Source: Cyanophora paradoxa CCMP329
Lineage: Eukaryota > Plantae > Glaucophyta
DNA length: 64,000 bases
Assembly (NCBI GenBank): GCA_004431415.1
Contig: QPMI01000098.1
Span: forward strand, 116,890 to 180,889
Direction of reading: 5' to 3'
Numbering within the stretch: position 1 is the stretch's first letter; every line of letters starts with the position of its first letter. Below the pieces are notes generated by a model. The model was not told the origin of the DNA, did no database searches, and saw only the letters and a program-made list of their open reading frames with translations. Of the stretch, positions 4,160 to 53,493 are shown in pieces. A program made the position numbers and the translations under genes.

Positions 4160-6432
4160 ATGAGCGCCGGTGCTAGTGCCATCAGCGATGGAAGCGTATG
4201 TGGCGGGTGGCCGTCGGAAATCTTTGAGCCCGGCGAGGAGGCGAAGGCGAAGGGCTTCGAGCTGACGTGCGCGGTCTGCTTGCTTGTAATGCGCGATCCG
4301 GTGCGTCGCGATCGGCGCCCGCACACGCGTACTAACTGCAGCCACTGCATTACACAGGTCGAGCTCGGTTGTCCCAACAAGCACGCGCTGTGCCGAACCT
4401 GCGCGGATCATCTGGCGCGGGAAGCCGGCTATCCCTTCGAATACGAGTACATGAAGGCGCAGCTAAAGTGCCCAGTCGACCGCGATGTCATCGACTGCGA
4501 GCGCTTCGAGCCGGCGAAACGCGACGGTCGACGCATCAACGAGCTGCGGGTGCTGTGCGCATCTTGCGACCAGAGCGCGGGCTCAGCTTGAGCTAGCGCT
4601 CGAGCTCTAGCTTTAGCTTAATTAAGCTTGCATCGGCACCTGACTCCGGACGCGGCGCCGTGCGCCTCCACCGCGCAGCTGCCTGTTTCAGGAGCGGGGC
4701 TGCGAGTGGCGGGGCGAGCTGGGCTCCTTCACCGCGCACGCCGCGAGCTGCAGTGCGGTTTGTGCCTCCCAAGCCTTCGTTTAGCTTCGAACACTGACCG
4801 TGAACTGAACTACACGCCCGCGCGCAGATGCCGCAAGGGCAAGGCGCCAGCGACGAGTTCATCGCCCGCCTAACGCGCGAGAAAGGTCCTCGTTCCCTTC
4901 TCTTCTCTTCCCCCCCCCTCCCCCGTGCCCCCCCTCGCCCTGCCCCCCCCCCCCCCCCCCCCCGTGCCCCGTCCACCCCTGTCCCCCTCCCCTTCCCTCG
5001 TCCTTCCCGTCCCCTATTCCCCCCCCCTCCCCCGTCCACCCGTCCCCCCCGCCCCCCCCCCCCCCCCCACCCCACCCGCCCCCACCACACCCGCCTCCCT
5101 TCGCCCCCCGGTCTCCCTCCCCCCGCCTCCCATGCCCGGGCCCCGCCCCATCCCCCCCACCCCTTCCTCCGTCTCCCCTCCCCGCTCTCCCCCCTCCCCC
5201 CCCTCCCCCTGGTCCCCCTCCCCGCCGCCTTCCGTGCCCGGTTTTGACTGCAAGGTTCAGGTACCCTGGAGGGGCAGGTCCGCGACCTCTCGAGGCAGCT
5301 CGAAGCGATGCGGCTGCGGGCGGAGGCGGCTGAGAGGCAGCTCGACAACTCGACAACTGAAGTTGCAGTTGCCCCCGGGCAGAGCGTTGCGAATGCTGTC
5401 AGGCGGGCCGCCGTTGGGCAGACAATCCGACTCGCACCCGGCGTGTGCGCGCTGCTTTCTGATCATGCACATGAGTATCGTATGAGTCTCGTTTCTAAGG
5501 CTAAGTTTTTTAATGTGCCATGTGCCACAGGTACAGGCAGCAGCTGGTGCTGGACAAGGAGGTGCACGTCGTGGGGCCGCGGGAGGCCGTCTTCAAGTGG
5601 GACCAGGGCCCCACGCTGCACTGCAAGGGCCCCGCGGCGCCTAGCGTCAAAGGAATTACGATCCGGAACACTGCGCGGGGGGAGACGGCGGTGTGGATCA
5701 CAGATGGGAGCCGGGTGTTCGTAGAGGGCTGCGACGTCTCCAGCGCTGGCCTCAGTGGCATTTTTGTCTCCGAGGAGGGGACGGCTCCGACGATGCGCGG
5801 TGGGCGCCCCGCCCCGCCCTCCGCCCGGCCTACTGTTGACCGATTCCTCGCTGGGCAGGGAATGTGGTACACGACTGCGGCGGTATTGGCATCTTCTTCC
5901 ACGCGTCGGCGAAGGGCGTCGCGGAGGGCAACGACATCTACGACATCAAAGTGGCGGGCATTCAGATCACTTCCGGCGCTGACCCCATCGTGCGGGGCAA
6001 CAAGGTACATGACGGCAAGCAGGGCGGCATCTTCGTGAATGAGAACGGGCGGGGCACCGTCGAGGGCAACGACGTCTACGGCAACGCGCTGGCAGGCATC
6101 CAGATCAATGACGGCGCTGACCCCGTCGTGCGGGGCAACAAGGTCCACAACGGCAAGTCGGGCGGCATCTGGGTGTTCGATAACGGGCGGGGCACGGTCG
6201 TGGGCAACGACGTCTACGGCAACGCGCTGGCGGGCATCGAGATCAGAACTGGCGCAGACCTCGTGGTGAAGGGTAACCGGTGCGCCCTCGGGCTCCTCTA
6301 CGCCTCCCTCACCCTTCTCTCCCGGCGCTGACATCGATATCCGGCCCCCGCAGGGTGCACGACCAGCAGTACGGGATCTTGGTGAGCGGCAGCAGCAAGG
6401 TGATCGTCTCGGGGAACACAATCGAGCGCATC
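4160..6432 (+). CDS. Host RING/Zn-finger + coiled-coil + right-handed parallel beta-helix (FBXO11/NosD-like repeats) protein, 5' part; interrupted by element 1
   Basis: LTCAVCLLVMRDP..C..H..C..C..CPVDR RING-like motif; repeated GNKVHDGKQGGIFV / GNDVYGNALAGIQI; the last exon runs GNTIERI into the element terminus. Confidence 0.8.
6427..6432 (+). repeat. Left 6-bp target-site duplication CGCATC
   Basis: The same hexamer follows the right TIR at 34274-34279; 6-bp TSDs are typical of Polinton rve integrases. Confidence 0.95.
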
Positions 6433-6740
6433 ACACATATACAACTCCCGGCTTTTAGACCTCGGCTTATTTAAATTGATCTCGTTAGTATATAACCTGT
6501 ATTTATAATATATCTATCGTGAATATGTGTGTGTTTTATCGGTGATTTGTATTTATTTTATCGTGGGTTATAGCTTCTTTTTAATAAAATATGTGAAATA
6601 TGTATAGTTTCTTTGATCTTTATGTATATTCTCGATGAGTAGACTTATATATCTCGTGAGTTTTATTATATTAGAGGTGTGACTCAACTTAGTTTAATTA
6701 TAACTTGCCTCAGTCTAAAAGCCGGGAGTTGTATATGTGT
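6433..6740. other. Terminal fold-back: 28-bp perfect stem (6433-6460 / 6713-6740) enclosing an imperfect AT-rich arm
   Basis: ACACATATACAACTCCCGGCTTTTAGAC at the terminus, with its exact reverse complement at 6713-6740; mirrored at 33966-34273. Confidence 0.9.
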
Positions 6741-6904
6741 GTTTGTTCTGAATTTTCAATATAAAAGCGACGATCACGCGCCGTTTCATCATAAACAACT
6801 ACCATGAGCTGCATGGAACGTTCTGCATGCGGCTCTCTATAAAACAAAGTAGATCTATGATATATTATGATTGATTGTTTTGTATTTTAATTGGTCTTAT
6901 TCAG

Positions 6905-6996
6905 TGTTACAGGTGTTACAGGTTCATCCCAAACTTTGCCCTAGGAGGGGGGTCTTGGTTCCCGAGTTTGGGCAAGACCTGTAACACCTGTAACAA
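6905..6996. repeat. Inverted repeat of a tandem TGTTACAGG dimer around a ~55-bp spacer (inside TIR)
   Basis: TGTTACAGGTGTTACAGGT ... ACCTGTAACACCTGTAACA, with inner CCCAAACT/AGTTTGGG. Confidence 0.85.
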
Positions 6997-7123
6997 CGTA
7001 AACAATTATCATGTGCTGTATGAAACATGTCGCGCGCATCGAGAGTGTGCGGCGCACTGTGCGGCGGACTGTGCGCAACGTAAATGTATGAGTTTCGCAT
7101 CGAGATCGATCGGCTACTCATAG

Positions 7124-7812
7124 GAAACTACGCAATCTATCGCAACTACTCAAAGAAACTACGCAATTTAATACCGGGAACTACTGAAAAGATACCAAAA
7201 CTACGCAACTACGCAACTTTTTGAAAACGTTTGAAATTCGGGGCGGGAAAAATTTAGAAAAGTGTAAAACTTGCGTAGTTGCGTAGTTTTGGTTTCATTT
7301 GCGTAGTTTTGGTTTCGAATTGCGTAGTTTTTCAGGGAAAGTTGAGTAGTTTAAAGTAGTTTATATATTATAAAGTTGTTTCTTATTAATATCAATATGA
7401 TTCTATGATATATACCATGCTTTCTCTACTGAAAAGAGCGCCGGCATGCTACAAAGGGAAGCTACGCAATCGTTTCGCACTGAAACACAACAGTTTTATA
7501 GGCTACACAATAGTCTCGCACTGAGAAGCATGCGGGCAATCGGAGACTACGCAATTTAACGTAACTACGCATGAAAACTACGCAATCTGATCGCTTTTAA
7601 TACCGAAAACTACGCATTTAATACCAAAACTACGCAACTACGCAACTTTCTGAAAAAATTTGAGAGTAGGGGGGGAAAAAAATTAGAGAAGTGAAAAACT
7701 TGCGTAGTTGCGTAGTTTTGGTATTAAATGCGTAGTTTGCGGTATTAAGTTGCGTAGTTTAACATAGGTAGTTGAGTAGTTTAAAGTAGTTTTAATTAAT
7801 TATAAAGTAGTT
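7124..7812. repeat. Two tandem palindromic ACTACGCA iteron-like cassettes (putative origin) in the left TIR
   Basis: Arrays of AACTACGCA face arrays of TGCGTAGTT across a ~50-bp A/T-tract spacer with a G-run; the two units are offset by about 429 bp; mirrored at about 32895-33583. Confidence 0.8.
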
Positions 7813-8170
7813 TATTATTTATCTTATTGTTATCAGTCTGAGACTCTATGAAAATCGATTGACCTTAGTGTGAAACAGTGCGCCCCGCCCACTATGCAAG
7901 ATACATGCAAACTACATGCGAGTTCCATGAAAAACTATAACGATTAAGTCATGTATATATTTCGTATATATGTCCGAACCTCCGTGATAGTGATCCCGCG
8001 CAACTTTCGTTTTTGTTTTTCTTTTTTTTCTCATATCACGACATATACATATATATATCGGCGTCACCGACATATTCGGGGTCATCACATCGCGGCGATT
8101 CCGAAAACATATAGCATGCCACAAAGTAGTATTTTATGTTTTTGTTGTGGTATTCGACCAATCACAAGCC

Positions 8171-8465: not shown

Positions 8466-8542
8466 GAGTCCCGAGTCCCGAGTCCCGAGTCCCGAGTCCC
8501 GAGTCCCGAGTCCCGAGTCCCGAGTCCCGAGTCCCGAGTCCC
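8466..8542. repeat. Perfect heptamer tandem repeat (GAGTCCC)x11
   Basis: Read directly from the sequence; followed by GACTC. Confidence 0.95.
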
Positions 8543-8910
8543 GACTCGATAACACCGGCGATCGCGACTTCGCGGAGACCCCCTTCCGTTTTCCCCGCAT
8601 AACTTTGGACAGGAAGCCGATCCCGGCGCGCTCTCAATTGCTACGTGCTCATAACTTGCTTCCGGGCATGTTGGTGCTGGTTTGACTAGCTTACGCAACC
8701 GTGGCGCGACGCGCAAGTTCGCCATCGGCACAAGTGCCCGAAAACCGAGGTGTCCGCTACATTCTGAGCGCCGGCGCGCGTTCCCGTGCGTCTCCACTAG
8801 TCATACTTTGCATCCGCGTGCGCATAGAGTAGTGCTACACTGCTACAAAGTGGCGCGGTCTGATTCGCAAAGGGCGCGATTTGGCGGCTACGAAAGCACC
8901 GCGGCGCCTA

Positions 8911-10353
8911 CTACTTTCGTGGTCTCAGAGTCGCTCTTCGATCGCCATTAGCTACCGGCGCTACCGTTGCTACTTTTCTACTACTTCTTAATGTAGCTTT
9001 GGTTTCCGGCGCTTTGTAGCTCTCAGTTTGATTAGAGAACGACTTATACCATCGTTGGCTATTAACGCCGCCGGACAGCTTAGGCTCCGCGGCTGTTACT
9101 AGCCGCTGTAATTCTTTATTTACTCGTTTCTCTTTTTGCACGCGATCCTCTAATAGAGTGCCTTGTGGCACAGTCGCGGCGGCTTCTATGCCCTCTCTAC
9201 GCAATTGCGCATCGACCCGCGCCTCGTCCTTTGCCGCTTCTAATGCATCTACTGTGGGCGCCATTAGGTAATCCACAGCTTGGACAGGCAATAGCTCGTG
9301 GAAGGCAAAGCGACCCTCTACGCGATTGCCGTCCGGATCAGTTAGCATAAACTTATAGCCCTCGCGCGCGGCGACAGTATATACGATCCGGCTCCAATTG
9401 TTACCGCCCTTAGCGAATGGCGTCTTCTCGATGCGTAGCCTTACTGACATGCCCGGCTGAATCTGATCCAAATAAGCTATCGATTTCTTGAATTTCGCAT
9501 CTTCTTTTTGAACTATAAGCTTATAGTGACTCTCGTTGGTCTCGGCAGGCATATAGCCGGTCGCAGAGTGCACCGTATTATTATAGTTATATTCCAGAGA
9601 CGAAAGGATATCTATAAATCGAGCCGTATTATTCGCGATGCAGTAGCTCGTGATCAGCCGCCGCATTTGCTTGTTAAATGCTTCTATGCGCCCTTGCGCG
9701 CGATGGTCGGCTGTGTCCGCTATCTGATGCTCAATAAACTGATTCTCGAAATATTTGCGCATAATATCATTGCGGAATTCGCTTCCCGCATCGCTTTGCA
9801 CTTTGAATATTGGTCTCGGCGCCTTATTTTGCAGCTGAATAAATGCGGCTAAGGTCGACGCCGCGGACTTATCCCGCATTGGGATAATGAACCCGACCCG
9901 TAATGTGTTCTCCATAGCCGTGAGAAAAGCACTGTAATTATCATTATACTTCGAGTAAGCGGGAAAGAATAGCAGATCAATTACGTAGGTATCGAGAGGC
10001 TGTCGGATCGGTATAGCAGGGTCTCGTTTGCGGGATAGGTGCGGCGCATTAATCTGAACGACCTCTTGCCGGCTATACCACTCTTGCAATTTCTTATAAT
10101 TCTCGTCGGGCAGCTCTTGCCGTAGCTTAGTGATCCCTTTGAAACCGGTTTGCGGATCGTAGAATTTACGCGCGATTTTCGATTCCTCCGGGACAGCAAG
10201 GGCTACGGGCACGTCGCGGGGCACCAAAGCCTTTAAATCAGACCGCTTTACTATGCGGCTCTCTTTATTCTCTTTGGGCACGGGGATCGGCAATGTGCTC
10301 CCCTCTAAATCTTGCGATCGTCTTACTATTGGCGGTCTTGACATCCTTGTCAT
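8911..10353 (-). CDS. Retroviral-type (rve) DDE integrase of Polinton type
   Basis: YVIDLL (D), VQSDAGSEF (D), QGRIEAFNK (E), YNNTVHSATGYMP, and the GMSVRL..FAKG..NWS tail typical of Polinton integrases; ATG at 10353 or 10344. Confidence 0.93.
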   Translation of the reverse strand: MTRMSRPPIVRRSQDLEGSTLPIPVPKENKESRIVKRSDLKALVPRDVPVALAVPEESKIARKFYDPQTGFKGITKLRQELPDENYKKLQEWYSRQEVVQINAPHLSRKRDPAIPIRQPLDTYVIDLLFFPAYSKYNDNYSAFLTAMENTLRVGFIIPMRDKSAASTLAAFIQLQNKAPRPIFKVQSDAGSEFRNDIMRKYFENQFIEHQIADTADHRAQGRIEAFNKQMRRLITSYCIANNTARFIDILSSLEYNYNNTVHSATGYMPAETNESHYKLIVQKEDAKFKKSIAYLDQIQPGMSVRLRIEKTPFAKGGNNWSRIVYTVAAREGYKFMLTDPDGNRVEGRFAFHELLPVQAVDYLMAPTVDALEAAKDEARVDAQLRREGIEAAATVPQGTLLEDRVQKEKRVNKELQRLVTAAEPKLSGGVNSQRWYKSFSNQTESYKAPETKATLRSSRKVATVAPVANGDRRATLRPRK

Positions 10354-11436: not shown

Positions 11437-14400
11437 CTAACAGCCGAATGGAAGGCTATGTATGCCGTCGCCTGATATGCAGCGCTTGCCATCGAATTGG
11501 GTCAGCGCTATCCGCTTGCTCTCCAAATCATATAAGTGGTGGCATCGCCGTTGCTTGTTTACTACTGTTACTGTTTTTGTGATCCCGTCAAATAGGCAGC
11601 GCTTAAAGTCGTCGAAATGCACCTCTTTCGAGGCTGTCCCGCTCATTTTTACCTTGTCGTAGCTCTCGGTGCGGAAAGCATATAGCTTCGGTCGCAGCCC
11701 CACATACTCCACTATCTTGACGTCGGGCATCTCATTTTTATATTTACCGGGAACCATCCGGTTCTCGGGACTATTAGGGCAATCTAAATAAGGGCTGATC
11801 GCTCGCATGCCAGCTTCCAGATCCGCGCTCTCTATATACAGACAGAACGAGTCGGTATCGTGGAACAGCAGCTGAGCTTGCGAGAAAGTCGGTCGGATCA
11901 CGTCGTAAAAGAAGCTATAATTATGCAGCTTCGCAGCATCGAGCACATACGCGCCAATCGCAACCGGTTTATCGAGTTTTACGTGTTTACTATACATTTC
12001 GAATGCGACCGCGGTCTCGTTTAATACATTCGTCGCTTTTACCAGTGGGCTCGCGGCGTATTTCTTAAACAGCTTCGTGCTGTTCGCGATCTTTACCACG
12101 GAGCGCCCGCGACACGATTCCAGGCATTTACCGTAAATAGCATTATTCATCAATTTGAAAAAGTCGCTCTCGAATTTATTCCGGGCTTCCTTTCGCAGCT
12201 TCGTGTTCAGATCTATATAGGGCTTCATAAATGCAGCGGTTGCAAACGAGAGCACGCGGTGAATCTTAGTAACTACGATCCCCTTTTTTACCATATAGAG
12301 CAGCATCGGCTGAGAGACCACGTAATTATATTTCGGAGTAAACGAGGCGATCAGCTTCGGATCTTTACTGAGCTTCTCGCCGCTAATCTCCAAAAGCCCA
12401 CGCTGATATTTCCCGAGCATGTCCACAGTAATTACCTCTTTACTCACGATCAGCGGGAAATCGCGATGGTCGCCCTTTAAATAGTCCGGATATGCAAGGT
12501 CGACCTCTATAAATGCACTCCGCCCTACGACCTCGGTAAAAGCTGTGCTTGTGTCGTCCCAGCGATAGTCCCCGACCGGTAAAGGCTGACTGAGCGCATA
12601 GCCATACAGATTATTCGCATCCAATAGCACTATATGTTTATCCTCGCTATTAGCCTCGGCATATCGTGTGGGCATGGTCGCAAAGCCGCCCCTAATTGCC
12701 CTCTCAATAAATTCGTATTGATCCGCATCGCTGATCTGTTCAATTGCGACCCTCGTATGCTTTAACATCGCGTCCCACGATAGTCCCGGTGCGCTCACAT
12801 AATGCGTGGGATCCAGTCCGTATTGCTCATGTGCGAGCATACTGAATTTACCGAATTTTACCATGAGATCATTAACATCGGACGCCTGAAAATCCATGAA
12901 ATTCGATGCATCTATGAATTTGTAAAGTCCCCACTGTAAAGAGAGATACTCGTCGAAATTCTTACTTAGGATCTCGACCCGCAGCTTATCGTCTTGCTGT
13001 GCGATTTTCCTGAATAGAGCATGTCCGCACTCGTCCATCCGATCAATTACCACGGCTACTTTCGTTTGCTTTGAGATCCTCCTATGTAAATTGCATTTTC
13101 GGCAAGCTTTTCCTATATAATCGCCGCTTTGGTGACAGTGATCGCGCACAGGGAAGTTTTCGTGGGTAAACCGCTGATTGCATATATAGCAGTGCTTGGT
13201 GAGCTTATAGGCTTGCTTTTGCGCCTCTGTGAGCGGGATCATAGGCGTGTTGGTAAATAGGGTATTAAGCATCTCGCGGCACAGATCCCCTAACGTGGTA
13301 AACATCTGACCCAGCGGATCCACGCCCTCGAATTCGTGATTTTCAACATGCGAGCCCATAACTACATTAAGTGCCACCGACTTTACCTCTCGCTTGGTTC
13401 TATTTGGTTCATTAGGAACCGGCACCGACTCCATCTCTACCTTGCAGTAGCAGACAGTAGGAAGCCACACCATTTTCCTTAGGTGTTGCAGTCCGAAAGT
13501 AATAAAGCTTCCGGGCTCCGGGCATTTACCTTTACTCAGCCGCCAATCGATACAGCGATTAGAGTCGGTGTGGCTATCGAGTTTCTCCTGTGATCTAAAC
13601 CGGGACAAACAGGTTTCGCAGTAGAAAATGCGCCCGTCGTTTGCTTTATCAAAGGTGGTCTTTAATAGGCGGCTCAGTGACATGATCGTAATATAGTGAC
13701 CCTGTCCGTTTGCGTCCTCGATCAGCAGCAGGTTTACCTTTGATTTGCGACGCGGATTACTTGACATGTGCAATGGGTAAAAGGTTTGGGTCGCATTGTC
13801 GGCGCCATATATATTAATTGACAGCTCGGGATTATTGTCCTCGAAACGATCGATTATTTGGGCATCGCAAGCCACCGGGAAAGTAATGCCTGAGAAGTCG
13901 AGTTCAGTCAACCACCGCCTATATTGGAACGGATCATTACGTTTGTGTCTGTTTATGTCGTTTCTGTGCAGCCATGCGAGGATAGCGTAATTAAAACAGT
14001 CGTGACCATCGATATTCTTAATATTTACTGTGGCTCGCTTTAATCCAATCCATTCGGGGGTCTCAATGTAGCAACCGCCCATCGGCGCATATGACAAAAC
14101 GGCGACATGTAGCTTATCTAATTTACTGAGCCGGTAGCTGTCGACCTGTATCATCTGTTCATTCATTTGCTGAGCTACACCCACTAACTCAGTGAGAATA
14201 TTGCGCGACCTTGTGATTACGAAATAATCGCTGTAAATGTGTTTGGTGATAAAAACGTTAGGATCACTCACTTTTACGTATCGGCAGATGAATGTAAGGC
14301 GCACCTTAATAGCTTTAAGCTCGTCCAGCCTCTCTTTCAGCCGCCCAGGCAGATTTGCAGCGATGGTAGTGAGAAATTCCACCGGATCTAAGATTATCTG

Positions 14401-14700
14401 TTCATCCGCCTTATAGCTATACCAGGCGTATGCTTTATTCATTGCGAAACCGTCGTCCTCATCGGGTTCTATGACGGCTAAGCGCCGCCCTTCGGTATAG
14501 AAGCGCTCCACATTTTCCAGGCGATTGTAAAGCTCGTCGGCAATATTCGCAAGGTTAGCTAAGCGGGGTTTTCGATCTAAGATCGCCGCCCTCCGATCGT
14601 ATTCGGCTTCGGTGATCTCCCCAGTGACTAAAAGACTACCTAACAAGCCTAATATTTCGTCCTTTTTCTCTTTTATAAGGCGATTAGTTTGGCGGGGCAT
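11437..14700 (-). CDS. polB: Polinton-type (protein-primed family) B DNA polymerase with putative OTU-like, C2H2 and endonuclease VII-like domains
   Basis: Polymerase motifs LLDANNLYG, FKLMNNAIYGK, HDTDSF, GKYKNE, GLRPKLYA; CETCLSRFRSQEKLDSH; CYIC...VRDHCHQSGDYIGKACRKCN. Confidence 0.93.
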   Translation of the reverse strand: MPRQTNRLIKEKKDEILGLLGSLLVTGEITEAEYDRRAAILDRKPRLANLANIADELYNRLENVERFYTEGRRLAVIEPDEDDGFAMNKAYAWYSYKADEQIILDPVEFLTTIAANLPGRLKERLDELKAIKVRLTFICRYVKVSDPNVFITKHIYSDYFVITRSRNILTELVGVAQQMNEQMIQVDSYRLSKLDKLHVAVLSYAPMGGCYIETPEWIGLKRATVNIKNIDGHDCFNYAILAWLHRNDINRHKRNDPFQYRRWLTELDFSGITFPVACDAQIIDRFEDNNPELSINIYGADNATQTFYPLHMSSNPRRKSKVNLLLIEDANGQGHYITIMSLSRLLKTTFDKANDGRIFYCETCLSRFRSQEKLDSHTDSNRCIDWRLSKGKCPEPGSFITFGLQHLRKMVWLPTVCYCKVEMESVPVPNEPNRTKREVKSVALNVVMGSHVENHEFEGVDPLGQMFTTLGDLCREMLNTLFTNTPMIPLTEAQKQAYKLTKHCYICNQRFTHENFPVRDHCHQSGDYIGKACRKCNLHRRISKQTKVAVVIDRMDECGHALFRKIAQQDDKLRVEILSKNFDEYLSLQWGLYKFIDASNFMDFQASDVNDLMVKFGKFSMLAHEQYGLDPTHYVSAPGLSWDAMLKHTRVAIEQISDADQYEFIERAIRGGFATMPTRYAEANSEDKHIVLLDANNLYGYALSQPLPVGDYRWDDTSTAFTEVVGRSAFIEVDLAYPDYLKGDHRDFPLIVSKEVITVDMLGKYQRGLLEISGEKLSKDPKLIASFTPKYNYVVSQPMLLYMVKKGIVVTKIHRVLSFATAAFMKPYIDLNTKLRKEARNKFESDFFKLMNNAIYGKCLESCRGRSVVKIANSTKLFKKYAASPLVKATNVLNETAVAFEMYSKHVKLDKPVAIGAYVLDAAKLHNYSFFYDVIRPTFSQAQLLFHDTDSFCLYIESADLEAGMRAISPYLDCPNSPENRMVPGKYKNEMPDVKIVEYVGLRPKLYAFRTESYDKVKMSGTASKEVHFDDFKRCLFDGITKTVTVVNKQRRCHHLYDLESKRIALTQFDGKRCISGDGIHSLPFGC

Positions 14701-15354: not shown

Positions 15355-15440
15355 TGTGTTGTCAGTATATACAATCAGAGAAAGGCTTATATACCTTTGT
15401 CAAATTTTGAGAATGGCACGATATATAGTATACAAAATAA

Positions 15441-15710
15441 TAAACTACTTAATTAATATAATAAACTACATGAAACTACTTGACTTTCCTTGAAACACTA
15501 CGCAACTTGAAACCAAAACTACGCAATTAATACCAAAACTACGCAACTACGCAACTTTTGCGCTTTTCAGAATTTTTGCCGCCCCGAATCTCAAACCTTT
15601 TGCAGAAAGTTGCGTAGTTGCGTAGTTTTGGTATTAAATGCGTAGTTTCCAGTATTAAATTGCGTAGCTTCGCTATGTAGTTGCGTAGTTACTAAAAAAT
15701 GATGTAGTTA
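15441..15710. repeat. Internal copy of the ACTACGCA palindromic cassette directly after the helicase stop codon (putative origin)
   Basis: ACCAAAACTACGCAACTACGCAACTT...CCGCCCCGAA...AAGTTGCGTAGTTGCGTAGTTTTGGT, closely matching about 33340-33590 of the TIR. Confidence 0.85.
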
Positions 15711-15729
15711 TTAATTGTTTCCGTGTCGC

Positions 15730-18144
15730 TTATGCTTCAATATCGTCCTCATCTTCGTCTTCGAACTGTGTCTTGGCGATCTTAGTGAGCCCCTTATAAA
15801 CTCGCTTCGACTTCCCTTTAATTGTAGTCACAGTCGATTCAATCTTGAATGTTTCGAGCACTTTGTTACTGATAGTGCGAGTGGTAACCTTTGTCTTGAT
15901 ATCGTAGCTTCGCATCATTTCCGCGCAAGCTTTGAATACCTCATCGCAGGCAACATGGGCGCCCTTCTCATCTGATGGTTTGTAGTTTTCGCGCAGATAG
16001 GAACCCAGCTTATCGCTGTCGTCGAGATATTTGGCGCTATGCTCGATGACAGATTGCGGCGGGTTTTGCAGGATCTCTTTTACTTTGCCAGTAGCGAGCA
16101 TATCGATGAGAATCTGAATATTTGCCCGCTTGTATTCATTTTTCTCGTCGCCCTCAAACATTTCCATGAGAGTTTCGTCCGCTTTCTTCTCTCCGGCTTT
16201 GGGATTAGGTGAGTAAACAGAGCGGAATGGGATCGATCTGAACCGACGCTTAATAGCTTTGTCGGGCTTTTCGATTTCCAGATTATTGTTGCACAGGATC
16301 ACCATAGTAAACCGAGGCTTGAAATCAATAGGATCCTTGAAAAGTCCTCGGGCTGTGCAGAGCTCGCCACCTGTCAGTGTCTTCATCATACCGCATAGAA
16401 GCTTGTCGCCATCATTAGGCTCGTTTGCATGGGTAAGCCGGACACCTTGCTTATTAGCAAGCTCGGGAATCGGGCTATTTGCTTTGTGGACTTGTGTGAG
16501 CAAAGTAATGCTAATCGGGCGAGCATAATCACCGAATGTCTCTTGCATAAACGTTTCAATCACACTCTTTCCATTAGCACCGACACCTGTGAATAGATAG
16601 AACGTTTGCAGGTCGGTTTTACCTGTGAGTGCATATGCATAGAGGCTGATCAGGTAATTGTAGAGTTCCATATCTCCGCCACAGATATCCAAATAAATGT
16701 CTTTCAGTCTTTTAACCTTTGCCTCATCAACTTCCTCGCAGTAATCAAAGCCGACAGTCTTGCTCACCATATCTTCCGTCGTCCCCTTGCGGAAAGTCAT
16801 ATTATTTAAATCAAACACGCCATTAGTAAACCCCACAATATTGGGAACTGTGTCCAGAGTCGCCATAAAGTCATCGTCTTGCAGCTGTGTGATAATATGC
16901 GGTTCCAGTGACTTTTGATACGGTGTATTCTGAATCCTCTTATGAATTGCCAGCAACATGTTGGCGCTCTTCTCAGCTTTTTCCTTCACAAGATCATCTC
17001 CACTTGCCCTGAGAGCATTGGAAAGATGATAGCCCGCCCTCTTAGAGAACCACTGTGCCACATGCTCGGGGATCTTAGAAAGTAGCGACTTCTCCGTTTT
17101 ATCATATTTCCAAATACCATTTTCGGGGTTCAGGTTAAACCAGACCTTATTTGAATATTTCGTGGTCGCTTTCAGGATCTTGGCGCAGATGATTGCAACA
17201 GGATAATGGGCACCTTCAACTGAAACGGTCTTGTCAATGAGAGTATTAATTTCTAAATGGTGCTTCTCTTCCTCGGTCAGCTCTATGTTAACCGAGAACT
17301 CTTTCGGCTCGCAGTTCTCGCTATAACTCTTCACAATATACTCGTTATACTTGCCATCTCGCTTTTTCTTCACCCACCAGTTATTGGAATCGTGGGATTC
17401 ATCGCAGCAGGGACACAGGAACCCCTTGTTAGCCGAATTAAAGTCAAAGCCCTCATCGCGGCGTGCATAGATGTTTGGGAATAGGAACCCCATCCCACAC
17501 AGCCCGGTAATAATAGCAGCTTCGGTATTATCCTTGCTCGAATTTCCCGCTTTCGGCTGTGGATTATTGGCATGCTTGTAATCGTAGTTCTCGATAATCC
17601 ATTTACGGAAAGCGTCGGAGGGCTCATTAAACTTGCACGACGATGCCCACGGCTTAATTACCCAGGTCTTATTAGGGCTTGGGCATACATTGAGAAGTCC
17701 CGCAGTGCCAGTGCCAGTGATGGTTTTGAGGTCGACCTTCTTGTATCCCTTAAAAGCCGGCGCGCTATCTGTGATTTTCAGCTTATCGAACTCATCAGGG
17801 CGTCGAAAGAATACATGGTAGCCCTTACGAGTCTTTTCGAGTGGCTGATGGGCATCGAAATCATCGGGAAACATCTCAACGAATTTCTGATAGGTTTCCT
17901 CATCGTCGAAATCGACGACCATCATCGAATTCGACAGCAGAATGCCCCAATTAGTGAACTGATTGGACTTAAAGGCTTCGTCGTATCGTTCCCAGTTCCA
18001 AACACCGCCTTTATGGGTGTAGGCGGGCTTTTTAACCTCGTCTTTCATGGGAATAATCGTGTTTTTCGACAAGGTCTCATCGCCACGCAGCCAGTCAGCG
18101 AGCTCTTGGAGTAAAGTCTTTTGTTTCAACGTCATCTTTGCCAT
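15730..18144 (-). CDS. Primase-polymerase (AEP/Prim-Pol) fused to a D5-like superfamily 3 helicase
   Basis: N-terminal NWGIL...VVDFD...TRKGYHVFF; Zn-binding CPCC..H..C; D5_N FTNGVFDL; Walker A GVGANGKS, Walker B-like ANEP, motif C ILCNN, AIKRR; likely ATG at 18144. Confidence 0.92.
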   Translation of the reverse strand: MAKMTLKQKTLLQELADWLRGDETLSKNTIIPMKDEVKKPAYTHKGGVWNWERYDEAFKSNQFTNWGILLSNSMMVVDFDDEETYQKFVEMFPDDFDAHQPLEKTRKGYHVFFRRPDEFDKLKITDSAPAFKGYKKVDLKTITGTGTAGLLNVCPSPNKTWVIKPWASSCKFNEPSDAFRKWIIENYDYKHANNPQPKAGNSSKDNTEAAIITGLCGMGFLFPNIYARRDEGFDFNSANKGFLCPCCDESHDSNNWWVKKKRDGKYNEYIVKSYSENCEPKEFSVNIELTEEEKHHLEINTLIDKTVSVEGAHYPVAIICAKILKATTKYSNKVWFNLNPENGIWKYDKTEKSLLSKIPEHVAQWFSKRAGYHLSNALRASGDDLVKEKAEKSANMLLAIHKRIQNTPYQKSLEPHIITQLQDDDFMATLDTVPNIVGFTNGVFDLNNMTFRKGTTEDMVSKTVGFDYCEEVDEAKVKRLKDIYLDICGGDMELYNYLISLYAYALTGKTDLQTFYLFTGVGANGKSVIETFMQETFGDYARPISITLLTQVHKANSPIPELANKQGVRLTHANEPNDGDKLLCGMMKTLTGGELCTARGLFKDPIDFKPRFTMVILCNNNLEIEKPDKAIKRRFRSIPFRSVYSPNPKAGEKKADETLMEMFEGDEKNEYKRANIQILIDMLATGKVKEILQNPPQSVIEHSAKYLDDSDKLGSYLRENYKPSDEKGAHVACDEVFKACAEMMRSYDIKTKVTTRTISNKVLETFKIESTVTTIKGKSKRVYKGLTKIAKTQFEDEDEDDIEA

Positions 18145-20008: not shown

Positions 20009-20920
20009 TCAAAATTTACCCAATTTCTTTGCAAATTTTGGGCGGCGCTTTTCTTGGTATGCCAGCAATAGATTGGGGTCTTTAAGTAGGTCGGCTTCGA
20101 TTATTCGTTTGGTGGATCGCTTTAAGGTTGCGACGTTTCCACTCACAGGCTTCGTAATATCGGTGGTTTGGGGTTGGTCACCATTTACCGCGCCCGACGT
20201 CGGTTTTACCGGCTGTTTACCAGCGGTCTTTATGTCGTCCGCCGCTTTTTTAAAGAAGCGCTTGAATTTATATTCGTCGGGCACCGGATCAGCCTTGCCA
20301 ACAGAGAATTCCAGGCTATATTTCGCATTGTTTACCACGATCACCTGATAGCTGTGACTGTATTCGGTCATCACCTTCTCGAACCACCGCTTTTCGTATG
20401 GATTAAACTCGTCCTCGGCGCTCTCCATCTCCTTTCTATTCGGCAATGAGAACAGGAATATATATTCGGCGTTTACTCTGAGTGTCGGCGAGATCTTCGT
20501 GAGTTTCTGTGACAAAATCCACACGGACACAAACAGATGGCGTCCAGCCGTGAAAAGACGATTTAATATAGGCTCACCCTTTCCTGACATCGATAGACTC
20601 GGATTATCAATAAAATCGTCCAGCACAATTAACAGGTTACCGACTTTCTCATTTTTCTTGATCCTCTCCTTGCGTTTCTCTATTATATTGTCGATCAGCT
20701 TATGGTCGAAATCCTCATACAGATACGATGTGACATTGTCGTATTGATGATTCCAGATCGTGGAGGCGAATATCATCACCGAATCTATCTTGTCCTCATT
20801 GTGGTAAAGCAGGTATTTCAAAAACACTGACTTCCCAGTTGCTGTTTTGCCCACAAAAACGGCTCGATTTGGGAAATCCAGGCTTCCCGGGTCAAACTCA
20901 CTCAGATCTTGTATATCCAT
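20009..20920 (-). CDS. A32-like (FtsK/HerA) DNA packaging ATPase
   Basis: Walker A VFVGKTATGKS, Walker B LIVLDD, GRH..VSVWILSQ, R.NAEY; likely ATG at 20920. Confidence 0.95.
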   Translation of the reverse strand: MDIQDLSEFDPGSLDFPNRAVFVGKTATGKSVFLKYLLYHNEDKIDSVMIFASTIWNHQYDNVTSYLYEDFDHKLIDNIIEKRKERIKKNEKVGNLLIVLDDFIDNPSLSMSGKGEPILNRLFTAGRHLFVSVWILSQKLTKISPTLRVNAEYIFLFSLPNRKEMESAEDEFNPYEKRWFEKVMTEYSHSYQVIVVNNAKYSLEFSVGKADPVPDEYKFKRFFKKAADDIKTAGKQPVKPTSGAVNGDQPQTTDITKPVSGNVATLKRSTKRIIEADLLKDPNLLLAYQEKRRPKFAKKLGKF

Positions 20921-20971
20921 TTCCCTTATAAGAAACATATAAAAATTACGAAACGCCACAGCCCTCATTCC

Positions 20972-22420
20972 TCATGCCGATATTCTACTGAGACCGTTGG
21001 CATTCATTACAAGGATATTGTGGCAGTAAGCCGAAATCTGAACACTGACCTTCGACCAGGTGGCGAGGGGTGTGCCATTGGGTGTGAGGATTAGGAAGCT
21101 CGACGCTGATTGCGTTAGATCGACGTAGCCAGTCGCCTTCTCACCTTTGAGCGCCGCTTTACCATCGAGAGCAAAGCAGAAGCCAGTGTAAATGGGGCGC
21201 TTGTTGCTATCGATCCAGTTAGTCATCTTGAATTTATCGGCGAGCTCCATAGCCGCGGATTGCAGCGGGACACCAGTGTTGGAATATAGGTAATTGTTGT
21301 TATTTAGAACTTGCATCACGACATTATCATCGAACGCAAGGGTGCGGACAGTAGAGTGCCCTCCTTTATTATCGCCGAGTGTGTTTTCGTCGCGAACCTT
21401 GACAACAAGTGCGTAAACAAGTCCCGAAATTTGAGATAGTGACAGGCGGAGACCAGAGCCGAGAGCAAGACCGGTATAATCCGCAAACTGAATATCAGTG
21501 TAGGGGATGGCGATGCCAGAGGTCTTAACACGAGTAATGATTTCGCCCATCGTTTCCTCATCGATGTTAACAGCATCCATAATAATACGAGGGGTCGTCA
21601 TTTCCAGATTCGCAAGAGCAGGTGTAGGTGTGAGAGCCGCACTATCGAAAATCGCAGTGGCATTAGGGTGAGCTAAGGTCTTAATATTTCCGAAAGCAGC
21701 CGCAACAGCAAGCGTCGTCTCGCCATCAGTAGAATTGGCAGCAGTAATTGCAGTCGTGTTATTCTGAGCGTAAACGCCAGGAACCGCCGCAGTTTCGAGC
21801 AGCGCAGGGGTTTGGAAATATACTTCGACCGCGATTTCGGATGGGAGCGCACCGATGGGCACGCCAGCATCGAGGAAGCTCGGAATTCGCATGGTAAAAA
21901 TGCCGCCAGCTTGGTTGCCGCCCTCTACCTTCGGTCCGAGATGTAGCCCATGCTTGCGCTTCTTTTGCTCGAATTCAGCCGGAGAGTTAGCGAGGAAGGC
22001 GTAATCTACCAGTCGCTCAGCGGGAATAATTTGCTCATACGACCCGTATTTAATGCTGACTCGCTGAACAAACGATCCAGGAAGCCCGCGGACGAATCCA
22101 GTATTGAATAGATCAGCCGAGCAGTCAGCAGAGGTCTTGGCGATGGCAGTCAGCGCCTTCGCCGATGGAATGGTAACTTGGAGGCTAATACCATTGCACC
22201 AATTGTAGCGAGGGAGATAGAAGACCACACGAGTGGTAGCACCAGTAGAGGAGAACAGATTGCCGGGATCCGCAATTGGGAGCACCTCAACACGAGAAGG
22301 CTTGAATTGTTTATCAACGCCCACAATAAATCCGCGATCCAAAAGCATGCTCTTGTAATCCTCCGGGGTTTCCAGGACGGATTTGAGCGTGAGGCGGGAA
22401 AGCGAGGTCGTGGGATCCAT
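20972..22420 (-). CDS. Major capsid protein (double jelly-roll, PLV type)
   Basis: 482 aa and beta-rich; lies between the ATPase and pentons; FVQRVSIKYG..EQII, IPSFL..GVPIGAL..I.VEVYF and C-terminal ISAYCHNILVM fit the DJR-MCP pattern. Confidence 0.78.
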   Translation of the reverse strand: MDPTTSLSRLTLKSVLETPEDYKSMLLDRGFIVGVDKQFKPSRVEVLPIADPGNLFSSTGATTRVVFYLPRYNWCNGISLQVTIPSAKALTAIAKTSADCSADLFNTGFVRGLPGSFVQRVSIKYGSYEQIIPAERLVDYAFLANSPAEFEQKKRKHGLHLGPKVEGGNQAGGIFTMRIPSFLDAGVPIGALPSEIAVEVYFQTPALLETAAVPGVYAQNNTTAITAANSTDGETTLAVAAAFGNIKTLAHPNATAIFDSAALTPTPALANLEMTTPRIIMDAVNIDEETMGEIITRVKTSGIAIPYTDIQFADYTGLALGSGLRLSLSQISGLVYALVVKVRDENTLGDNKGGHSTVRTLAFDDNVVMQVLNNNNYLYSNTGVPLQSAAMELADKFKMTNWIDSNKRPIYTGFCFALDGKAALKGEKATGYVDLTQSASSFLILTPNGTPLATWSKVSVQISAYCHNILVMNANGLSRISA

Positions 22421-32798: not shown

Positions 32799-34273
32799 GC
32801 ATGTATCTTGCATAGTGGGCGGGGCGCACTGTTTCACACTAAGGTCAATCGATTTTCATAGAGTCTCAGACTGATAACAATAAGATAAATAATAAACTAC
32901 TTTATAATTAATTAAAACTACTTTAAACTACTCAACTACCTATGTTAAACTACGCAACTTAATACCGCAAACTACGCATTTAATACCAAAACTACGCAAC
33001 TACGCAAGTTTTTCACTTCTCTAATTTTTTTCCCCCCCTACTCTCAAATTTTTTCAGAAAGTTGCGTAGTTGCGTAGTTTTGGTATTAAATGCGTAGTTT
33101 TCGGTATTAAAAGCGATCAGATTGCGTAGTTTTCATGCGTAGTTACGTTAAATTGCGTAGTCTCCGATTGCCCGCATGCTTCTCAGTGCGAGACTATTGT
33201 GTAGCCTATAAAACTGTTGTGTTTCAGTGCGAAACGATTGCGTAGCTTCCCTTTGTAGCATGCCGGCGCTCTTTTCAGTAGAGAAAGCATGGTATATATC
33301 ATAGAATCATATTGATATTAATAAGAAACAACTTTATAATATATAAACTACTTTAAACTACTCAACTTTCCCTGAAAAACTACGCAATTCGAAACCAAAA
33401 CTACGCAAATGAAACCAAAACTACGCAACTACGCAAGTTTTACACTTTTCTAAATTTTTCCCGCCCCGAATTTCAAACGTTTTCAAAAAGTTGCGTAGTT
33501 GCGTAGTTTTGGTATCTTTTCAGTAGTTCCCGGTATTAAATTGCGTAGTTTCTTTGAGTAGTTGCGATAGATTGCGTAGTTTCCTATGAGTAGCCGATCG
33601 ATCTCGATGCGAAACTCATACATTTACGTTGCGCACAGTCCGCCGCACAGTGCGCCGCACACTCTCGATGCGCGCGACATGTTTCATACAGCACATGATA
33701 ATTGTTTACGTTGTTACAGGTGTTACAGGTCTTGCCCAAACTCGGGAACCAAGACCCCCTCCTAGGGCAAAGTTTGGGATGAACCTGTAACACCTGTAAC
33801 ACTGAATAAGACCAATTAAAATACAAAACAATCAATCATAATATATCATAGATCTACTTTGTTTTATAGAGAGCCGCATGCAGAACGTTCCATGCAGCTC
33901 ATGGTAGTTGTTTATGATGAAACGGCGCGTGATCGTCGCTTTTATATTGAAAATTCAGAACAAACACACATATACAACTCCCGGCTTTTAGACTGAGGCA
34001 AGTTATAATTAAACTAAGTTGAGTCACACCTCTAATATAATAAAACTCACGAGATATATAAGTCTACTCATCGAGAATATACATAAAGATCAAAGAAACT
34101 ATACATATTTCACATATTTTATTAAAAAGAAGCTATAACCCACGATAAAATAAATACAAATCACCGATAAAACACACACATATTCACGATAGATATATTA
34201 TAAATACAGGTTATATACTAACGAGATCAATTTAAATAAGCCGAGGTCTAAAAGCCGGGAGTTGTATATGTGT
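32799..34273 (-). repeat. Right terminal inverted repeat (1475 bp)
   Basis: Reverse complement of 6433-7908. Confidence 0.95.
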
Positions 34274-34390
34274 CGCATCTCGGACCCATCCTACGCGCCC
34301 TGCGGCGGCGTGAAGGTTCGCGAAGGCTGCACCTCAATACGGCAAGGAAACACGTTCCGCCATGATTATGATGATGATGATGATCAATAA
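34274..34390 (+). CDS. Severed 3' end of the host RING/beta-helix gene (begins with the right TSD CGCATC)
   Basis: Joined across the TSD it reads GNTIERI-SDPSYAPCGGVKVREGCTSIRQGNTFRHDYDDDDDQ*, in frame. Confidence 0.8.
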   Translation, partial: RISDPSYAPCGGVKVREGCTSIRQGNTFRHDYDDDDDQ

Positions 34391-49605: not shown

Positions 49606-51371
49606 CCTCAGTCAAAACGTTACCTACACCGCTGCGTATCGCGGAGTCGCTTTTCCTCGTCGGGCTCTCAGTGGCCTCGACGTTTCGGCACCCGCCGCCG
49701 ACTACGATCGGGGTCGGAGCCACCCGGAAATCGCTAAACTTGCTGCTGCGGGCTGGTACCAGCCGTCTCGAGCTCAGACGTAAACTCGATTTCACGTACC
49801 CAACCGCGACCCTCACCGTGGCCCACGGGCATCACCCGCGGTTCACGTATACTATTACTAGTACATCAGCTTGTTCCCAAGCTTTCACCAGCTGCATAAG
49901 ATGTCGGGCTGGGATCCTTACTGCAGCCTGATGGTGAAAGACGGCAACGTCAAGGTGCGTCGCGACCAGAAAAGCCATTAATATTCCTCTACCGCCGCGG
50001 CGCCCCGGCCCAGCACGCTCTCCGGCCCGAGGCCTCACTGCCCAGAGCTCAGGCCGGTTCGATCTACGGCAAGGACGGCGCGAAATGGTGTTCGGCCGCG
50101 GACCCAGGAGCATCGCCGACCGACGCGGAGTTTTCGGCTTCCCAGGCAAAGGCGTTCGCTTCCGGCCTCAATAACCCCAGCCAGTTTGCCACTTACGGGA
50201 TGATCATCGGGTGCGGCGGTTATAAATTAACGTTACTACGGTTATAGCTTGCGATCCCTTCCTCGCTCTGTCTCGCTTCTTCCGTCTTATACTTATAATT
50301 AGGGCGACTCCGTCGAAGTACATGTATCTCCAAACGATACCGGCAGACGTCAGCACCGGTGCTCCAGCGGTGTCGATCGGCCGCAGGAGTGTCACGAGCG
50401 TCTTGGGCACCCAGTCCAACAAGGTGCGCCTTTTGAAAGTTCGCATGCACACGTGCACGCATGCGCACTTCAGCTCTCGATCGGAGCTTCCGAACCCCAC
50501 GACTCGGAGAGATACCAGATTGACTTGGCGCGCCGTAGGCTATCATCACTGTCGTGACGACTGACGGGGCGTCTGCTTCGAACGTCGCCTCGCATTTGTT
50601 TATTGCCCGTGAGTTCCGAGATCTTTCTTTGAAGCTCGGCCGCCCCCGATCGCGATGCGCTCAGTGTAGCTGCTCGAGCTAACTGTGGCCGCAGAGGATT
50701 TGATCAAGAAGGGGTTCGAGCTGGACGAAGAGGCGCAGCAGCTGGGGCCGGAGGAGGGGGGGCTCGAGGGCCTCGCCCTCGACGGCCGCGGCCTCCCCGC
50801 GGAGGAGGGCGCCCCGGGCGCCCTCGCGATCGCGGTCGAGGCGGAGGCCGAGCCCGAGCTCGCCCTCTCCCTTGCCGAGGACGAGGCCGAGCCCGCCCTC
50901 CTGTAGGTCCCGGCCTAGACCCCGCCCTCTGAGATCCAGAGATCTCTATACATAGCTAGGTCTGACGTCTCCCCGCCTTGCCAAGTTGTTTTCGTACTGT
51001 CTTCGAATTCTATCGCGAATTTCATTTCCCACATGATCGTGAGTTTTACGAAGGGAGGGAAGCTTTAAGAGGACGGGGCAGGGGCTAGCGCTGGAGCGGA
51101 GGGAGAAGGGGTGGAGGGCGGGGGCGGCCGGGGAAGAGGGGAGGGGCGGGGAGGTGACAAAGGCGGGGCGGGGCGTGCGCCACCTCGCTGATTATTAATT
51201 ATGATCATGATCAGTGTGCACTGTACATGTAAAGACACATACATATATTCTGGAAGAAAGCTTTAATCTGCAGATTCCGATCGCGACTAGCTTTAATGTG
51301 GAAGGCAACTTTGATTTATGTCTGGAAAGAGTACTGTATACGCTGTACGTGTAAATATACAGCGGCCTTAC

Positions 51372-51444
51372 ACACATATGAATATTCATATTTTAATCCC
51401 TCGGCGTTCCGCCTCAGGATTAAAATATGAATATTCATATGTGT
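51372..51444. other. Terminal hairpin of element 2: 28-bp perfect stem with CTCGGC-GTTCC-GCCTCA head
   Basis: ACACATATGAATATTCATATTTTAATCC (51372-51399) pairs with GGATTAAAATATGAATATTCATATGTGT (51417-51444). Confidence 0.92.
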
Positions 51445-51829
51445 GATTCGATGTTATATCAATAAAATCGATTAATTTATTTGAATTTTCACATGAATTT
51501 TCATATTTTTAAATGCATTTTCAATTAATTTAATCGATTTTATATCGATAAACTCGATTAATCGATATTGTATCTTAATTGTAGTTAATCGGAATTATAT
51601 CTATAACTTCGATTAATCTTAATTGAATCCTAAATGAATCTAATCGGAATTATATCAATAAATTCGATTAAATCATGTTCTTTTCCGATTAAATCAATTA
51701 AATATTTAAGTTTGTTACCATAAGTGGTCTAAGTTGACTCACTTTTCATAAACAATTTGAACTCTTAGTCTCCTTGAATTTCTTAAGATGACTCAACTTA
51801 GTCAACTTAGTCAACTTTGTTACCATAAT

Positions 51830-52550
51830 CAATCAGGGTGGACTCACTTTTAGATCAACTTTGAAATTTCAAGCAAAATCAACTTATATTTCAAAAGTGG
51901 ATCTTCTAAGTGGACTCATAATGTTCACTTTGTGATACATTTAAGTTCTAATGCTTACTGTATATGGTCAGGGTTGACTAAGTGGGGGGAGTTGACACAT
52001 TTTTCAAAATCTTTTATAGAATATTCTTTGGATCTCAAAATTTCCTCTGAAATTTGAGTCAACTCAACCCACTTAGTCAACCTTAGCATTGAAATGGTCA
52101 CATTTTTATATACATTTACTCCTTTTACGATTAATATGAATCAACCATGAGTCCACTTAGTATTAAATATTAATCAATGTAAATATAAACAAGGGATTAA
52201 GAGGAATGCTTATTGAATATGGTCAGGGTGGACTCACTTTTTTATACAAATCGAATTCCCAAGTAAATTTGACTCTAAACTGTTAGGTGGATCTTCTAAG
52301 TGGACTCAATATGTTCACTTTGTGATACTTGTTAGCTCAAATCCTTACTGTTTATGGTCAGGGTTGACTAAGTGGGGGGAGTTGACACATTTTTTCAAAT
52401 CCTTTTTAGAAAACTTTAGGTCCCAAATATTTCCTGTGAAATTTGAGTCAACTCAACCCACTTAGTCAACCCTTGCATTGAATTCGTAACAAAATCCATA
52501 TACTTTTACTACTTTTACGATTAATATGAGTCAACCTTGAGTCCACTTTA
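51830..52550. repeat. Two tandem (390-bp offset) palindromic GTTGAC/GTCAAC iteron-like cassettes
   Basis: GGTTGACTAAGTGGG..GAGTTGAC, A/T spacer, GTCAACTC..CCCACTTAGTCAACC at about 51971 and 52361. Confidence 0.82.
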
Positions 52551-52671
52551 ATATAAATATTATATAATAGGGGGAATCAAGGGGAATGTTGAGTTTTACT
52601 GTAATGAAATCGAACATTATTCCAATTACTTACAATAGAATTCTATCGTAAAAAATGTCCGGAATCCGGAA

Positions 52672-52747
52672 AATAATCATTGTATAAAGCTACTGTAGTG
52701 AAAGGATATATTATATCTTTTTGTTACAGTAGCTTATCAATGTTATT
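52672..52747. terminator. Long AT-rich hairpin just downstream of the AdoMetDC gene
   Basis: AAGCTACTGTA (52687-52697) / TACAGTAGCTT (52725-52735), with inner GATATA/TATATC and outer CATTG/CAATG. Confidence 0.5.
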
Positions 52748-52792
52748 GTTAGAAAACAAAGGAATCCTTTAGAAATTCATTATAGAAACCCA

Positions 52793-53191
52793 TCAAAACG
52801 GGAATCTATCATGTTTATGTCTCTCAGTCTTCTCAAATGTTAAGAAATTCATTGTTTTATCGATCTCATCTGCTACTGATTGTGTTTTATGCTGAGCTTC
52901 TTTACCACAACTGAATATATCAATTGCTAACATGCCTTCATTGGAATAACAATGAGCTGTGCAATGGCTTTCATCTAATAGCAGAACCAATGCAAAACCA
53001 GGAGGTGATAGTTTGCCATCAAATATCTCACAGTGTTTATGAACAATCCTAATACCTTGTCTCAATATTGCTTGTTCAAGGGTTCCCATAATCCAATTAC
53101 CTAGGAAGCTAACATGCTCATGACCTGTTGCTATAGCTGATTTAGCTTTGTAATCAAGCATAACATGAAAGCCTCTGTATTTAGTCTCCAT
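52793..53191 (-). CDS. speD: Prokaryotic-type pyruvoyl-dependent S-adenosylmethionine decarboxylase-family proenzyme
   Basis: GFHVMLDY, PPGFALVLLLDESHCTAHCY (ES self-cleavage site), IDIFSCG; 132 aa. Confidence 0.85.
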   Translation of the reverse strand: METKYRGFHVMLDYKAKSAIATGHEHVSFLGNWIMGTLEQAILRQGIRIVHKHCEIFDGKLSPPGFALVLLLDESHCTAHCYSNEGMLAIDIFSCGKEAQHKTQSVADEIDKTMNFLTFEKTERHKHDRFPF

Positions 53192-53220
53192 TAAGAATAC
53201 CTTAGAAAAATTAATTAATC

Positions 53221-53493
53221 CTAATCGAACCTAATGCAAATGTCCCTGTACTCTACTTTGATTGATGAAGTAGCCCTTTTCCTGTAAGCCTGAGAGTGCT
53301 TTTTGTTGCATTCCCTACACCCTGATCCCTTCACATGATTAAAGGGATAGGTTAGGATCACCTTGTTACACTGCAAACATCTAACAGATACTTTCTCTTG
53401 AGCTTTGATGTAATGTGTCTCACTGTAATCGAATTTATCTTTACCATGAACTGTCATAGCAGCATCAATAAACTTTTTTGTTTTAGTATCCAT
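53221..53493 (-). CDS. DUF723-like zinc-ribbon protein
   Basis: KFI..A..VHG..FDYS...Y......V.V.C..C.......P.NH.KGSGC.EC. Confidence 0.75.
   Translation of the reverse strand: MDTKTKKFIDAAMTVHGKDKFDYSETHYIKAQEKVSVRCLQCNKVILTYPFNHVKGSGCRECNKKHSQAYRKRATSSIKVEYRDICIRFD

Follow-up and report, generated by a model that had tools for sequence, protein, structure and literature searches.

Candidate replication-origin cassettes of a D5-type primase-helicase in an integrated Polinton-like virus of Cyanophora paradoxa

Origins beside primase-helicase genes in described replicons

In SaPI islands the replication origin (ori) immediately follows rep and is recognised through a C-terminal winged helix (PMC9371898, in part), and the origin used by ORF904 of pRN1 consists of a 21-nt stem with a 58-nt loop, 54 bp behind the gene (PMC4234260, in part). 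For Polinton-like viruses (PLVs), Barth et al. hypothesised that inverted repeats or terminal inverted repeats (TIRs) serve as the origin for the primase-helicase; in Gezel-14T a TIR repeat of more than 300 bp recurs behind the replication (end) module (PMC11296320, in part, including its section 9). The passages of that paper on PLV end modules describe no motif, spacing or binding domain. PolB and D5 occur together in one element in the Halocafeteria virophages, the palindromes of which lie at the very termini and were proposed as priming hairpins, whereas the arrays reported here sit 0.7-1.3 kb inside the TIR (bioRxiv 10.64898/2026.07.28.741278, in part). The portions consulted of PMC12721341 and bioRxiv 10.1101/2025.10.09.676808 hold nothing on such arrays. 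In the article texts covered, chiefly outside subscription journals, we met neither iteron cassettes in the TIRs of PLVs or virophages nor a mapped replication start site for this virus group.

We report five repeat cassettes in an integrated PLV. By analogy with SaPI, P4 and pRN1, we estimate at roughly 70% the probability that they are cognate binding and loading sites, i.e. replication origins, of the D5-type primase-helicase of the element. To judge from this analogy, the cassette system would work like the SaPI rep-ori pair and resembles pRN1 in its domains and geometry, being a member of neither.

The element and its ACTACGCA cassettes

The window, that is the whole stretch of 64,000 nt analysed, contains at 6433-34273 an element of 27.8 kb (ca. 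44% GC, 56% AT) that sits in GC-rich host DNA and that we call an integrated Polinton-like virus. It carries the features by which Polintons and PLVs are recognised: TIRs (1475 identities, no mismatch and one indel between left and right), a 6-bp target duplication, an rve integrase (weak, E 0.014), PolB, and a packaging ATPase. A jelly-roll capsid protein is probably encoded as well, judged solely by Atlas look-alikes; neither the Pfam scan nor the capsid search gave a sequence match for one. The main features are:

6427-6432 and 34274-34279: target-site duplication CGCATC, 6 bp
6433-7908, plus strand: left TIR, 1476 nt
8911-10353, minus strand: rve-type integrase (weak Pfam match, E 0.014, consistent with the 6-bp duplication)
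11437-14700, minus strand: family B DNA polymerase (PolB; DNA_pol_B_2, E 7e-12)
15730-18144, minus strand: D5-type primase-helicase, 804 aa, matching ASFV C962R and poxvirus D5
15763-16017, minus strand: predicted C-terminal winged helix (residues ~710-794), candidate reader of ACTACGCA
20009-20968, minus strand: A32-type packaging ATPase (E 1e-9)
20972-22420, minus strand: ORF
32799-34273, minus strand: right TIR, 1475 nt

The element stretch was present in 20 of the 24 listed sequencing runs of one organism, and the host-element junction (6215-6460) was found without differences in three of them (X1, X13, X16). In three runs the depth of the helicase-carrying contigs exceeded that of the host-junction contig about 5-10-fold, a hint at several element copies, contig depth being no copy number. 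The insertion site lies near a beta-helix-like host ORF. Between the left TIR and the integrase stands a tandem 7-bp repeat, GAGTCCC (about 11 copies, 8466-8547), a region that differs among contigs of other runs. The terminal sequence ACACATATACAACTCCCGGCTTTTAGAC at 6433-6471 is found again in inverted orientation at 6710-6748, ca. 300 bp inside each TIR. PolB bears an Endonuclease_7-like insert (E 4e-4), and its exonuclease motifs appear degenerate against the consensus.

The window contains 44 copies of the 8-base word ACTACGCA, where 1.13 would be expected and 100 shuffles gave at most 5. All sites are confined to five clusters (7127-7328, 7546-7758, 15497-15689, 32949-33161, and 33379-33580), two per TIR and one behind the helicase gene, in agreement with the first-pass annotation, which had listed five such units with the internal one ca. 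20 bp after the helicase stop. Elsewhere in the element only three more sites come within one mismatch of the 9-mer. As the TIRs are identical, the five cassettes represent three distinct units, which are pairwise 82-86% identical:

7126-7398: outer cassette of the left TIR, with its interior-facing AT flank at 7359-7398
7545-7826: inner cassette of the left TIR, with its interior-facing AT flank at 7787-7826
15421-15710: internal cassette, AT flank 15421-15467, spacer 15554-15610
15497, 15518, 15538, 15546: exact ACTACGCA sites of its left arm
15611, 15619, 15639, 15682: exact ACTACGCA sites of its right arm, with degenerate sites to ~15709
32881-33162: inner cassette of the right TIR, with its interior-facing AT flank from 32881
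33309-33581: outer cassette of the right TIR, with its interior-facing AT flank from 33309

In each cluster a gap of 56-57 nt separates plus-strand sites on the left from minus-strand sites on the right, so the opposite-strand arms of the "inward-facing" arrays described earlier are borne out, "inward-facing" itself being a label only. The internal cassette has eight exact sites (4+4) beginning ca. 20-40 bp behind the helicase stop, and ca. 20 bp separate its last degenerate site (~15709) from the stop codon (15730-15732, minus strand); contigs of two other runs connect it with the helicase gene (X13, 15619-15945; X4, 15652-16959). From the centre outward the sites follow one another at steps of 8, 20 and then mostly 21-22 bp in both arms of all units, with one arm showing a step of 32; the outer steps are thus near two helical turns. 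Motif positions vary less than those between them (9/84 against 37/118 gap-free variable columns, P 6e-4), a test that is partly circular, because columns with the motif in any unit were counted as motif.

The spacer runs from a T-tract through a G/C run to an A-tract, so that the A/T tracts earlier attributed to it are there, interrupted by the G/C run and with an AT content (58% in the internal unit, 68% in the TIR units) to be set against 56% for the whole element. The related proposal of an AT-rich central core did not hold: the internal spacer, at 58% AT, stands at the 31st percentile of duplex weakness, and the five weakest non-overlapping 40-nt windows of the element (starting at 15421, 32881, 7787, 33309, and 7359) are flanks of the cassettes. 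Each cassette is polar, with a very AT-rich flank of about 45 nt on one side only, which points to the interior in the TIR cassettes and away from the helicase in the internal one. GC skew of the element shows no switch at the internal cassette.

Inverted arms also admit a reading by shape, in which the cassette, though still an origin, works as a stem-loop or cruciform, or as a displaced-strand hairpin used by the primase; we regard this as unlikely. In two units the arms (43-53 nt) pair with 96-98% complementarity, and the cassette strand folds at z -11.9, as is expected of any inverted repeat. Among the three units to which the comparison is limited, 3 of 43 arm pairs are changed on both sides, but 7 of 43 are broken in at least one unit, one of them beside the loop. 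ORF904 of pRN1, with the same order of domains, needs a stem-loop behind its gene; the pRN plasmids, however, have no iterons and keep the structure without the sequence, whereas the repeated word and its spacing are conserved here (PMC4234260, in part).

The primase-helicase and cassettes at related loci

In Pfam the helicase matches D5_N (8e-8), SF3-type DUF5906 (7e-6, just under the cut-off) and Prim-Pol (E 4e-4, under the cut-off), and its closest relative shares 37% identity. The AlphaFold2 model of residues 639-804 (pLDDT 89, 42 sequences) places a winged helix at the end. VIA-align matched this model with the DNA-binding domain of RFX1 (Z 11.3, rmsd 1.9, 75 aligned), with RFX5 (Z 10.4), and, at rank 3, with the origin-binding domain of phage P4 (1ka8; Z 7.7, rmsd 2.8, 79 aligned); Foldseek also put RFX1 on top with E 1.6e-3, and none reached E 0.001. 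The C-terminus is accordingly modelled, and here predicted, as a winged helix of the RFX/P4-origin-binding type; the P4 match lies under Z 8, and a shared fold alone would show no function. Giant-virus core D5 proteins (C962R, D5) share such a C-terminal domain, yet have no adjoining cassette.

With SaPI/PICI Rep, or the fused PriRep5, the element has in common an SF3 primase-helicase with a C-terminal winged helix (here predicted) and 6-12 short repeats that directly follow the gene, two or more of them on each side in opposite directions; unlike in SaPI, the word is an 8-mer instead of a 5-6-mer, there are five copies per genome, and the AT-rich part is lateral instead of central (PMC9371898, in part). 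SaPI/PICI are moreover phage-inducible bacterial islands, whereas we deal with a TIR-bounded eukaryotic virus with rve, PolB, A32 ATPase and a probable jelly-roll capsid. From pRN1 it shares the order Prim-Pol, SF3, winged helix (the Prim-Pol match here being under the Pfam cut-off) and an inverted repeat with a loop of 50-60 nt less than 60 bp from the stop (PMC4234260, also PMC2777425, both in part). Phage P4 alpha and its ori offer a winged-helix origin-binding domain on a primase-helicase together with short repeats (Z 7.7 for the fold; role according to PMC4234260, in part). P4 alpha, however, is a Toprim-type primase, and Pfam found no Toprim match in our helicase, the N-terminus of which matches Prim-Pol. 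P4 replication needs a second iteron region, crr.

Our cassette detector required a 7- or 8-mer to be present two or more times and, after a gap of 20-120 nt, to recur in inverted orientation two or more times. In its 8-mer form it found eight cassettes in the window, all within two AT-rich elements, and the 7-mer form added one match in host repeats. Among 91 viral loci with related helicases (86 with room) the strict detector returned only 2/86 cassettes behind the stop. The 7-mer detector gave 3/7 downstream and 1/8 upstream in the small-contig helicase subfamily, and 0/82 and 0/81, respectively, at the other D5 loci, which are mostly giant-virus contigs that were not classified singly.

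A second sample comprised 83 virophage-capsid loci, a cassette being counted up to 350 nt after or 450 nt before an ORF. With duplicates included, cassettes accompany 4/14 helicases downstream (20/581 other ORFs) and 5/13 upstream (21/559). After removal of duplicates (L023, L026, L136, L146, L177) the figures are 7/10 helicases against 12/105 other ORFs, and in a set enlarged by five helicases 9/15 against 18/156 (P 4e-5), or 6/15 against 10/150 for the downstream side alone. The five were found via the L164 protein, two of them having drawn attention by their cassettes; L165 is a helicase by our own profiles only, and the partial L161 was excluded. Shuffled loci yielded 2 cassettes in 743 kb, compared to 23 in 248 kb of real sequence. 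Of the six helicases lacking a strict match, three have imperfect arrays by eye and three none. Every cassette-bearing virophage genome has its own word, and the gaps beside the helicases are mostly 50-70 nt, often with A/T tracts round a G/C run.

Two or three intergenic copies occur in virophages L022, L112, L132, L138, L164, L169, and L176; these lie at internal sites, so extra copies are not special to TIRs. The internal unit of our element resembles the two TIR units to nearly the same degree (212/248 and 211/247 aligned positions identical). Taken with the internal copies of virophages, this means that unit identities do not tell the direction of copying, for which a transfer from the helicase into the termini had been suggested.

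Could the cassettes be transcription signals, whether as mimivirus-like hairpins at transcript 3' ends or as operators and promoters? We consider this very improbable. Stop codons do precede the internal and right inner units, virophage copies are intergenic, the internal AT flank stands 70-110 nt ahead of the next ORF, and RFX-type folds are also present in transcription factors. Yet the element has ca. 17 ORFs but only three distinct units, two units per TIR follow no gene end, and some virophage cassettes stand before the helicase start. The units are also conserved in sequence, whereas the mimivirus polyadenylation hairpin was described without sequence conservation (PMC4402537, in part).

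Outside the virophages, tandem ACTACGCA was met in viral contigs at seven loci, with the layout in two and absent in five. Phage contig L001 has the same word and layout behind the end of an ORF with Pox_D5 and an RFX-type winged helix, and L007 has them behind a VapE-like ATPase. BLASTP gives no alignment of the L001 winged helix with the domain of our element, so the shared word does not amount to a wing-to-word recognition code. Eight of 888 matching phage records gave two clear cassettes at the stop, one weak, one at 1.9 kb, two imperfect by eye, and two none. Two cassette patterns had no match in prokaryote genomes. In metagenome contigs the full pattern was met at three loci, which were set aside as unrelated: they are GC-rich bacterial intergenic palindromes with no helicase. 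In these (L008, 5040-5120; L009, 1331-1417; L010, 8818-8903), which we take to be REP-like, tandem ACTACGCA lies inside GGGGACGG...CCGTCCCC ends. At L020 a cassette-bearing 190-bp repeat flanks the helicase gene on both sides and recurs at the contig end (763-952, 4023-4213, 7181-7306), and in L021 (1-9950) a primase-helicase module is perfectly duplicated in inverted orientation about the contig centre, which would make the contig either a hairpin replicon or an assembly artefact.

The single-protein locus search for the helicase and the capsid search returned no close relatives of the element, and the ATPase search found a single protein, of 82% identity, on a contig of 1.7 kb. Of the survey that the first-pass annotation had called for, the helicase-adjacent part, run here on virophages, speaks for the pairing (9/15 virophage helicases against 18/156 other ORFs); no close relative with TIRs came to light in these searches, so that the helicase-TIR link is drawn from the present element.

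We thus favour the origin reading on account of the predicted winged-helix tail, the conserved phased sites, and the enrichment beside virophage helicases; these support the rep-ori module envisaged at first, less its AT core and its direction of copying. The winged-helix domains would read ACTACGCA on one face of the duplex, and helicase hexamers would load onto the two arms. Melting would begin in the lateral AT flank and not in the spacer, after which the Prim-Pol domain would prime and PolB extend. More tentatively, the TIR copies, with their AT flanks inward, might serve to bring helicase onto the excised genome close to both ends. Several points count against the origin reading: the PolB belongs to the protein-primed family and might copy the termini independently of the cassettes, the spacer lacks the AT-richness of the SaPI centre, giant-virus D5 proteins with such a C-terminal domain lack the cassette, and 6 of 15 virophage helicases gave no strict match. 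A terminal-protein domain (background in bioRxiv 10.1101/2024.03.18.585575, in part) was sought at the PolB N-terminus, for which the single-sequence model has a pLDDT of 34.5 and the Atlas matches are unnamed proteins.

A second cassette type, cassette exchange and implications

Each TIR also contains a cassette of another word that was absent from the first-pass list:

6907-6993: left TIR, two copies of TGTTACAGG, then a 53-nt spacer (43% AT) and an inverted pair of the word
33714-33799: right TIR, the same cassette type with TGTTACAGG

Virophage L173 has a word similar to TGTTACAGG in the same polarity behind its helicase. Tandem TGTTACAGG was found in at least 122 stretches, 80 of which were fetched. 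A partner test on one side only gave 2/74 non-redundant loci, with no D5 helicase by our own profiles, and 6 of 22 scanned neighbouring ORFs are helicase- or initiator-like; at L197, L208 and L214, the three of these loci inspected with enough flanking sequence, the polarity about the spacer is opposite. The pattern of the second cassette had no match in viral contigs. A second AT-rich element, apparently decayed, runs from about 51220 to 64000 and beyond the window, and holds fragmented homologs of a 1581-aa ORF, an AdoMet decarboxylase and a patatin-like piece. Its twin units (51833-52090 and 52223-52480, 390 bp apart) have inverted GGTTGACTAAGTGGG arms about a spacer of ca. 55 nt. The 14-mer TGACTCAACTTAGT is common to the TIR of the first element (about 6679-6692) and the left end of the second (about 51791-51804).

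Contigs of other runs differ from the left TIR by whole cassettes. X1 and X16 skip 6823-7080, and with it the TGTTACAGG cassette (shorter side 47 nt); X1 only also skips 6995-7882, with both ACTACGCA units (shorter side 21 nt, weak); X13 and X16 run from 7877 into a different short repeat. As these are short-read contigs in repeats, the skips are to be taken as hints.

Such skips would also suit a mobile replication module with the cassettes as its boundaries or recombination sites, or an internal copy left behind from a TIR by a module swap; we think this improbable. The internal unit is inverted relative to the left-TIR units, so that integrase and PolB are bracketed. As in Gezel-14T, a TIR repeat is again found behind the replication module, which Barth et al. 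read as a sign of mobility; the Gezel-14T modules, however, use a tyrosine recombinase (PMC11296320, in part), and none was detected among the 17 ORFs scanned in our element, where the helicase gene lies 8 kb from the TIR and has a cassette on one side only. Against a leftover piece, the likeness to the TIR stops at the edges of the internal cassette, and this diverged unit retains its sites and phasing.

Within the origin reading, the long TIRs of this PLV family may, as a doubtful extension, be stacks of exchangeable origin cassettes with different helicase specificities. The ACTACGCA pair would then serve the present helicase, and TGTTACAGG a former helicase or, in trans, that of a sibling element. 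Were cassettes gained and lost with swaps of replication genes, the TIR would record, or widen, the range of helicases that replicate the element.

The layout itself is already known from SaPI, P4 and pRN1, and the proposal that TIRs act as origin is in print (PMC11296320, in part). What the present element provides is a base-resolved candidate origin for PLVs and virophages with a D5 primase-helicase, with its word and spacing, a presumed melt flank and a predicted reader domain. The virophages surveyed point to a general helicase-cassette layout, with a private word in each genome.
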